Made by a program: the position numbers and the translations under genes | In this document: in pieces, positions 8,899 to 9,357 of the stretch | Layout of the letters: every line of letters starts with the position of its first letter | How positions within the stretch are numbered: position 1 is the stretch's first letter | Notes under the pieces: model-generated | The model's database searches: none | Seen by the model: only the letters and a program-made list of their open reading frames with translations | Told to the model about the DNA's origin: nothing | Origin: Escherichia phage vB_EcoM_G4498 | DNA length: 64,000 nt | Strand: one strand, 5' to 3' | Sequence record: NC_054918.1

Positions 8899-9357
8899 TT
8901 ATTTTAAATCGTCTGCCCAATCGAGTTTAAGAGGTTCTTTATATTCACGATCTAATACGACCGGAATTTGTACATCACCGCTAAATGATAAGGGCCCAAC
9001 ATTATAAGACAATGTTATATGCGGTGTGTAATCATCAAAATCATGTGTAGCACCTAGTGCCCGCGCATACATGTGTCGACAGCGCAAATATTCAGAATCT
9101 AGCACAAGTACAAGAGTCGATCCATCTTGTGTTTTCCATACTTCTAAATGTCCAGAAGAAGCTACTTCAAAACTTCCACTCGATGGAACATATGGAACAT
9201 TTACTCTCGAATAACATATAGTTGAATGAATTTTTTCTCTAGGAACTGGATTAGGAACACGTAAAGAGCGCTGGAGTTCTTCCAGCGCGTCAAGTGTTAA
9301 TTCTGAAAACTTAGCTGCTACATAAAGACCCGTTGAAAAGTCTTTAAATTCCATCAT
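8899..9357 (-). CDS. 57B: 57B family; 2H phosphoesterase-like, Acb1 (anti-CBASS) candidate
   Basis: 152 aa, position upstream of 57A as in T4; two H-x-T/S motifs (KIHSTI, TPHITL); ATGA overlap with 57A stop. Confidence 0.75.

Follow-up and report, generated by a model that had tools for sequence, protein, structure and literature searches.

Organization of the acb1 locus

The analyzed window is a stretch of 64,000 nucleotides of the Escherichia phage vB_EcoM_G4498 genome (NC_054918.1). Gene 57B, referred to below as acb1, occupies positions 8899..9357 on the minus strand of the window. The coding sequence starts with ATG and specifies 152 amino acids followed by a stop codon. Its assignment was based on the ORF listing, the identity with T4, the Pfam family PF23474 and the PDB entry 7T26. 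Two catalytic motifs were located by a motif scan and by alignment with Acb1 of the phage FBB1, both on the minus strand: H44-S45-T46 (CAT TCA ACT) at positions 9220..9228 and H113-I114-T115 (CAT ATA ACA) at positions 9013..9021. The first-pass annotation had described a 152-aa product carrying the strings KIHSTI and TPHITL, without stating the strand; both strings are present, and the gene lies on the minus strand. A scan of the protein with a regular expression for H-x-[TS] gave just two matches, HST at residues 44–46 and HIT at residues 113–115. The spacing between them is 69 residues, which fits the value of about 70 expected for the 2H phosphoesterase superfamily. When the residues of the 57B product were shuffled in 20,000 trials, two or more H-x-[TS] matches appeared in 16% of the shuffles, the average number of matches being 0.75. 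By itself, the pair of motifs is statistically unremarkable and constitutes weak evidence. The argument from the motifs stands because of homology (the identity with T4, the Pfam Acb1 family and the 7T26 structure) and not because of the motifs alone.

Directly upstream of 57B lies gene 57A, coding for the tail-fibre assembly chaperone (9354..9584, minus strand). It was identified as an ORF that agrees with T4 gp57A in each of its first 75 residues (100% identity). The TGA stop codon of 57A overlaps the ATG codon of 57B in the 4-nt sequence ATGA, the same as in T4. This overlap suggests that 57A and 57B are co-transcribed and translationally coupled. The gp57A protein has 76 amino acids here versus 80 in T4, and its C-terminus reads ...AESADEE versus ...AESADEAKDEE in T4. 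The shortening corresponds to a 12-nt in-frame deletion just ahead of the overlapping 57B start, and the ATGA sequence is kept. Further upstream, in the sense of transcription, 57A is preceded by gene 1 (dNMP kinase, 98.3% identical to T4) and genes 3, 2 and 4, as in T4. The whole order trna.4 - IP - 57B - 57A - 1 - 3 - 2 - 4 is that of T4, and the DNA identity from position 8799 onward is about 97.7%. The first 25 kb of the window match many Tequatrovirus genomes at 95–97% identity over 94–97% of the length; judged by sequence comparison, the window is an ordinary, typical Tequatrovirus segment.

The search for transcription signals concerned promoter-like sequences. A promoter directly upstream of 57B is not expected, because 57B overlaps 57A. 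One promoter-like site, TTTACA and TACTAT separated by a 17-nt spacer, with TG, lies at positions 8857..8885 (minus strand) in the spacer between 57B and ip9 and points into the internal-protein (IP) genes; it is a match to the consensus pattern only. The consensus scan as a whole was uninformative, as it returned 13 promoter-like sites versus 8.4 ± 2.5 in the shuffled sequences. One octamer resembling a late promoter, TATAAATA, is located within gene 1 at positions 9947..9940.

Identity of the 57B product

The 57B product of the window was compared with the T4 proteins and found to be identical in 152 of 152 amino acids, both to gp57B of T4T (ADJ39858.1) and to gp57B of the T4 RefSeq genome (NP_049750.1). 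At the DNA level, 8 of the 459 positions differ from T4. All eight changes are synonymous, which points to purifying selection on an expressed 57B protein. The family search revealed a match to Pfam PF23474 (Anti-CBASS protein Acb1) with a score of 202.7 bits (cut-off 27, E = 2.7e-60). This match spans residues 9–150 of the protein and profile positions 1–144 of 144, and it places the protein in the family. NCBIfam was also searched and gave no family model for 57B. Among solved structures, the top match (E = 4.2e-62) was Acb1 of the Erwinia phage FBB1, available in the apo form (7T26) and in complex with 3′3′-cGAMP (7T27). Across 142 aligned columns, its identity to the 57B product is 67.6%. 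In the 7T26 alignment, each of the residues H44, T46, H113 and T115 faces an identical residue, so all four members of the catalytic tetrad are present. The ORF was also used in a megablast search against 50,697 phage records. It matched 553 of them, 501 at 95% identity or higher; nearly all come from T4-like phages of Escherichia, Shigella or Yersinia, and the T4 records match at 98.3%.

On the basis of these comparisons, the segment 8899..9357 is almost certainly acb1 of a T4-like phage (Tequatrovirus), coding for an anti-CBASS 2H phosphoesterase. The first-pass annotation had proposed an intact copy of the T4-type Acb1 belonging to the 2H phosphoesterases. This is borne out on each point: NP_049750.1, to which the protein is identical, is the accession of the published T4 Acb1, and the 2H fold is known from the solved structures of the 68%-identical FBB1 homologue. 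The correspondence of the two histidines with the Acb1 catalytic residues, on which that proposal depended, was found as well, since H44 and H113 are the sites mutated in the published work on T4 and are matched in FBB1. The question of identity is settled by the exact match to a biochemically and genetically characterized protein, together with the solved crystal structure for a homologue with 68% identity. What was identified here is an already published gene, found again in a relative of T4; the finding contains nothing new.

Function of Acb1 and alternative assignments

The function of the T4 protein was described by Hobbs et al. (2022, Nature 605:522; PMC9117128), who started from T4-infected cells, purified the 3′3′-cGAMP-degrading activity and assigned it to gene 57B. 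The product was named Acb1, with the accession given as NP_049750.1 (PMC9117128). The cGAMP-cleaving activity was seen about 15 min into the T4 infection, and the enzyme cleaves cyclic oligonucleotides including 3′3′-cGAMP and cAAA (PMC9117128). The FBB1 enzyme folds as a 2H phosphoesterase; in its structures, the HxT/HxT tetrad H44, T46, H113 and T115 lies beneath the scissile phosphate, and a C-terminal lid (residues 145–152) shuts over the bound 3′3′-cGAMP (PMC9117128). The catalytically dead variant of the T4 enzyme is H44A/H113A (PMC9117128). Lysates of cells infected with T4 Δacb1 lost cGAMP hydrolysis, and the mutant phage grew normally without CBASS and showed a defect of more than 300-fold when active CBASS was present (PMC9117128). 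In later work on Panoptes, another defence system, T4 acb1 was treated as an established anti-CBASS phosphodiesterase, and its deletion was without effect on Panoptes defence (PMC12657218). The results obtained with T4 Acb1 transfer to the protein encoded in the window because it is the same polypeptide. Based on the lid described for FBB1 Acb1 (PMC9117128) and on the identity with T4, residues 145–152 of the protein studied here (8902..8925, minus strand) would form a flexible lid.

Some database labels point to a different function. PHROG 755, which matches 57B at E = 5e-68, is labelled ‘RNA ligase’, and the same name is carried by the T4 57B in RefSeq and by several relatives. Taken literally, the label would make 57B an RNA ligase or RNA 2′,3′-cyclic phosphodiesterase of the LigT / 2′-5′ RNA ligase type, acting on the ends of RNA molecules, e.g. 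in the repair of tRNA. The 2H phosphoesterase superfamily (LigT / 2′-5′ RNA ligase, PF13563) does share with Acb1 the two H-x-T/S motifs and the metal-independent acid-base chemistry through a 2′,3′-cyclic phosphate, and an RNA side activity is conceivable given the common 2H fold. The substrate of Acb1 is a cyclic oligonucleotide immune signal and not an RNA end. The PF13563 model (2_5_RNA_ligase2) gave a weak match of 13 bits (E = 0.11), restricted to residues 81–123 and far under its cut-off of 27 bits, versus 202.7 bits for the dedicated Acb1 family. Moreover, cGAMP cleavage was the activity tracked in purifying the identical T4 protein, which cleaves cyclic oligonucleotides, and the Δacb1 mutant is impaired specifically in the presence of CBASS and otherwise grows normally (PMC9117128). 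The ‘RNA ligase’ name is a fold-level transfer made without experiment and is older than the characterization of 2022. We consider this assignment highly improbable. As the primary function of 57B it was rejected, given a generic Pfam model that stays below threshold and an Acb1 model that scores very high.

The historical gene name and the overlap with 57A could also be read as signs that 57B is an accessory of tail-fibre assembly, with the H-x-T motifs being coincidental. The ATGA overlap does suggest co-expression of the two genes, and a chance pair of motifs is not rare, as the shuffles of the 57B product showed. The homology to the crystallized enzyme, however, extends over the full length of the protein, with the motifs inside the active site, and the published dead mutant alters exactly H44 and H113. 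In addition, the normal growth of T4 Δacb1 without CBASS means that 57B has no essential morphogenetic role (PMC9117128). A role in tail-fibre assembly is thus hardly credible, even less so than the RNA ligase assignment, and Acb1 remains the preferred reading.

Compared with the T4 locus, the window has the same H44, T46, H113 and T115 residues, the same lid residues and the same upstream genes 57A, 1, 3, 2 and 4. It differs in that T4 has ipI downstream of acb1 in place of ip9-ip7-ip8, and in that the T4 57A product is four residues longer at the C-terminus. FBB1 Acb1 belongs to the same family and shares the HxT/HxT tetrad and the 2H phosphoesterase fold, but it comes from another phage and another host. 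About one third of its residues are substituted, and relative to it one residue is missing from the window protein after residue 80.

Like the identical T4 protein, the 2H phosphoesterase encoded by acb1 of this phage is small and metal-independent. In the infected cell, it would bind the second messengers, cyclic di- and trinucleotides, produced by the CBASS cyclases of the host. The H44/T46 and H113/T115 tetrad would drive the attack of the adenosine 2′-OH on the 3′-5′ phosphodiester, and the opening of the ring would proceed via a cyclic phosphate intermediate. The CBASS effector would then stay inactive, and abortive infection would be averted. For the gene in the window, the sequence identity, the conserved catalytic residues and the gene context are established, and the enzymology and the phenotype come from the work on T4. 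The conserved layout of the 57A-57B operon suggests that acb1 is expressed in this phage.

Internal-protein cassette downstream of acb1

Downstream of acb1, the single ipI gene of T4 is replaced by a cassette of three genes, ip9-ip7-ip8 (7876..8820, minus strand), identified by blastp against the proteins of phage RB15. The ip9 gene (8548..8820, minus strand) starts 78 nt past the 57B stop codon, and its product is 94.4% identical to RB15 Ip9. It is followed by ip7 (8178..8486, minus strand; 99.0% to RB15 Ip7) and ip8 (7876..8100, minus strand; 98.6% to RB15 Ip8). The three genes directly downstream of 57B carry the N-terminal signature MKT(Y/F)xEF of the T-even internal proteins; the N-terminus of ip8 reads METYQKF in the window versus MKTYQKF in RB15. 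Next comes trna.4, which is 98.4% identical to T4. The placement of 57B directly beside a variable IP array, also proposed in the first-pass annotation, was therefore found, with three IP genes adjoining acb1 where T4 has only ipI. In RB15 (GenBank Z35082), the same slot, flanked by trna.4 and 57B, holds an IP locus with the order ip5-ip9-ip7-ip8, and its Ip9, Ip7 and Ip8 are 94–99% identical to those described here. Both RB15 ip5 and T4 ipI are absent from this slot in the studied phage.

A blastn comparison placed the breakpoints of T4 homology at about positions 7877 and 8799. Between them, only short repeated IP leader segments match T4, and about 100 nt separate the acb1 stop codon from the beginning of the replaced cassette downstream. 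The leader and intergenic segments at 7809–7877, 8465–8531 and 8799–8870 are repeats of each other and of the T4 ipI leader. These leader repeats could serve as recombination sites for the exchange of IP cassettes. Among 641 matching phage records, only 12 cover at least 80% of the 7600–8900 segment in one place. The best match, with 98.1% identity, is the phage 310Ecol104PP, in which the 57B orthologue is annotated as ‘cyclic phosphodiesterase’.

In T4, acb1 is adjacent to ipI, an inhibitor of the GmrS/GmrD restriction system, and this arrangement was read as an anti-defence island (PMC9117128). That acb1 adjoins ipI (the 2022 paper) and that the IP genes are polymorphic (the RB15 record Z35082) is thus already known.

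Other features of the window

Three more complete ORFs with an IP-type N-terminus were found outside the cassette; they and the ipIII gene, which is truncated by the start of the window (1..212), are on the minus strand. Two of these ORFs, of 86 aa (274..534) and 93 aa (704..985), are located between ipIII and the lysozyme gene e, and the third, of 187 aa (4662..5225), is flanked by e.8 and the small-RNA/tRNA region. The compared T4 segment contains no match to any of these ORFs. Inspected by eye, the 93-aa ORF looks like the C-terminal portion of RB15 Ip5.

An array of tRNA genes was detected with ARAGORN at positions 6005..6833 (minus strand). It contains 10 genes, for Arg, Asn, Tyr, Met, Thr, Ser, Pro, Gly, Leu and Gln, versus 8 in T4, the Asn and Tyr genes being the extra ones. 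At the position of the T4 tRNA-Ile, ARAGORN called tRNA-Met (CAT anticodon). The array has no segB homing-endonuclease gene, and the same layout is present in 310Ecol104PP, the closest relative in the region. Next to tRNA-Arg lies an ORF (5636..6034, minus strand) of at most 132 aa, its start probably being an internal ATG, in a stretch with no match to the compared T4 segment; the counterpart region of T4 holds rnaD, tRNA-Arg and segB. The e.2a/e.2b segment of T4 (T4T 67452..67939) has no counterpart at positions 1945..1974 of the window, where the homology passes from nudE to e.3, and this phage appears to be without e.2.

Significance of the acb1 locus

The proteins of the ip9-ip7-ip8 cassette and of the other IP-like genes of the window, which carry a capsid-targeting signature, might act as injected inhibitors, each against a different host defence, in the way that IPI* acts against GmrS/GmrD. 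We regard this analogy as tentative and rather doubtful. If it is true, the IP genes around acb1 would form an anti-defence island with acb1 as its conserved anchor, an idea already hinted at in the literature.

The identification of acb1 matters here for annotation only, as many public records read ‘hypothetical protein’ or ‘RNA ligase’. The correct name for 57B is Acb1, anti-CBASS cyclic-oligonucleotide phosphodiesterase. For uses of the phage such as therapy or host-range prediction, an intact acb1 predicts that the phage is resistant to CBASS signalling through 3′3′-cGAMP, cUA or cAAA-type molecules; this prediction does not extend to systems with cGG or 3′2′-cGAMP.
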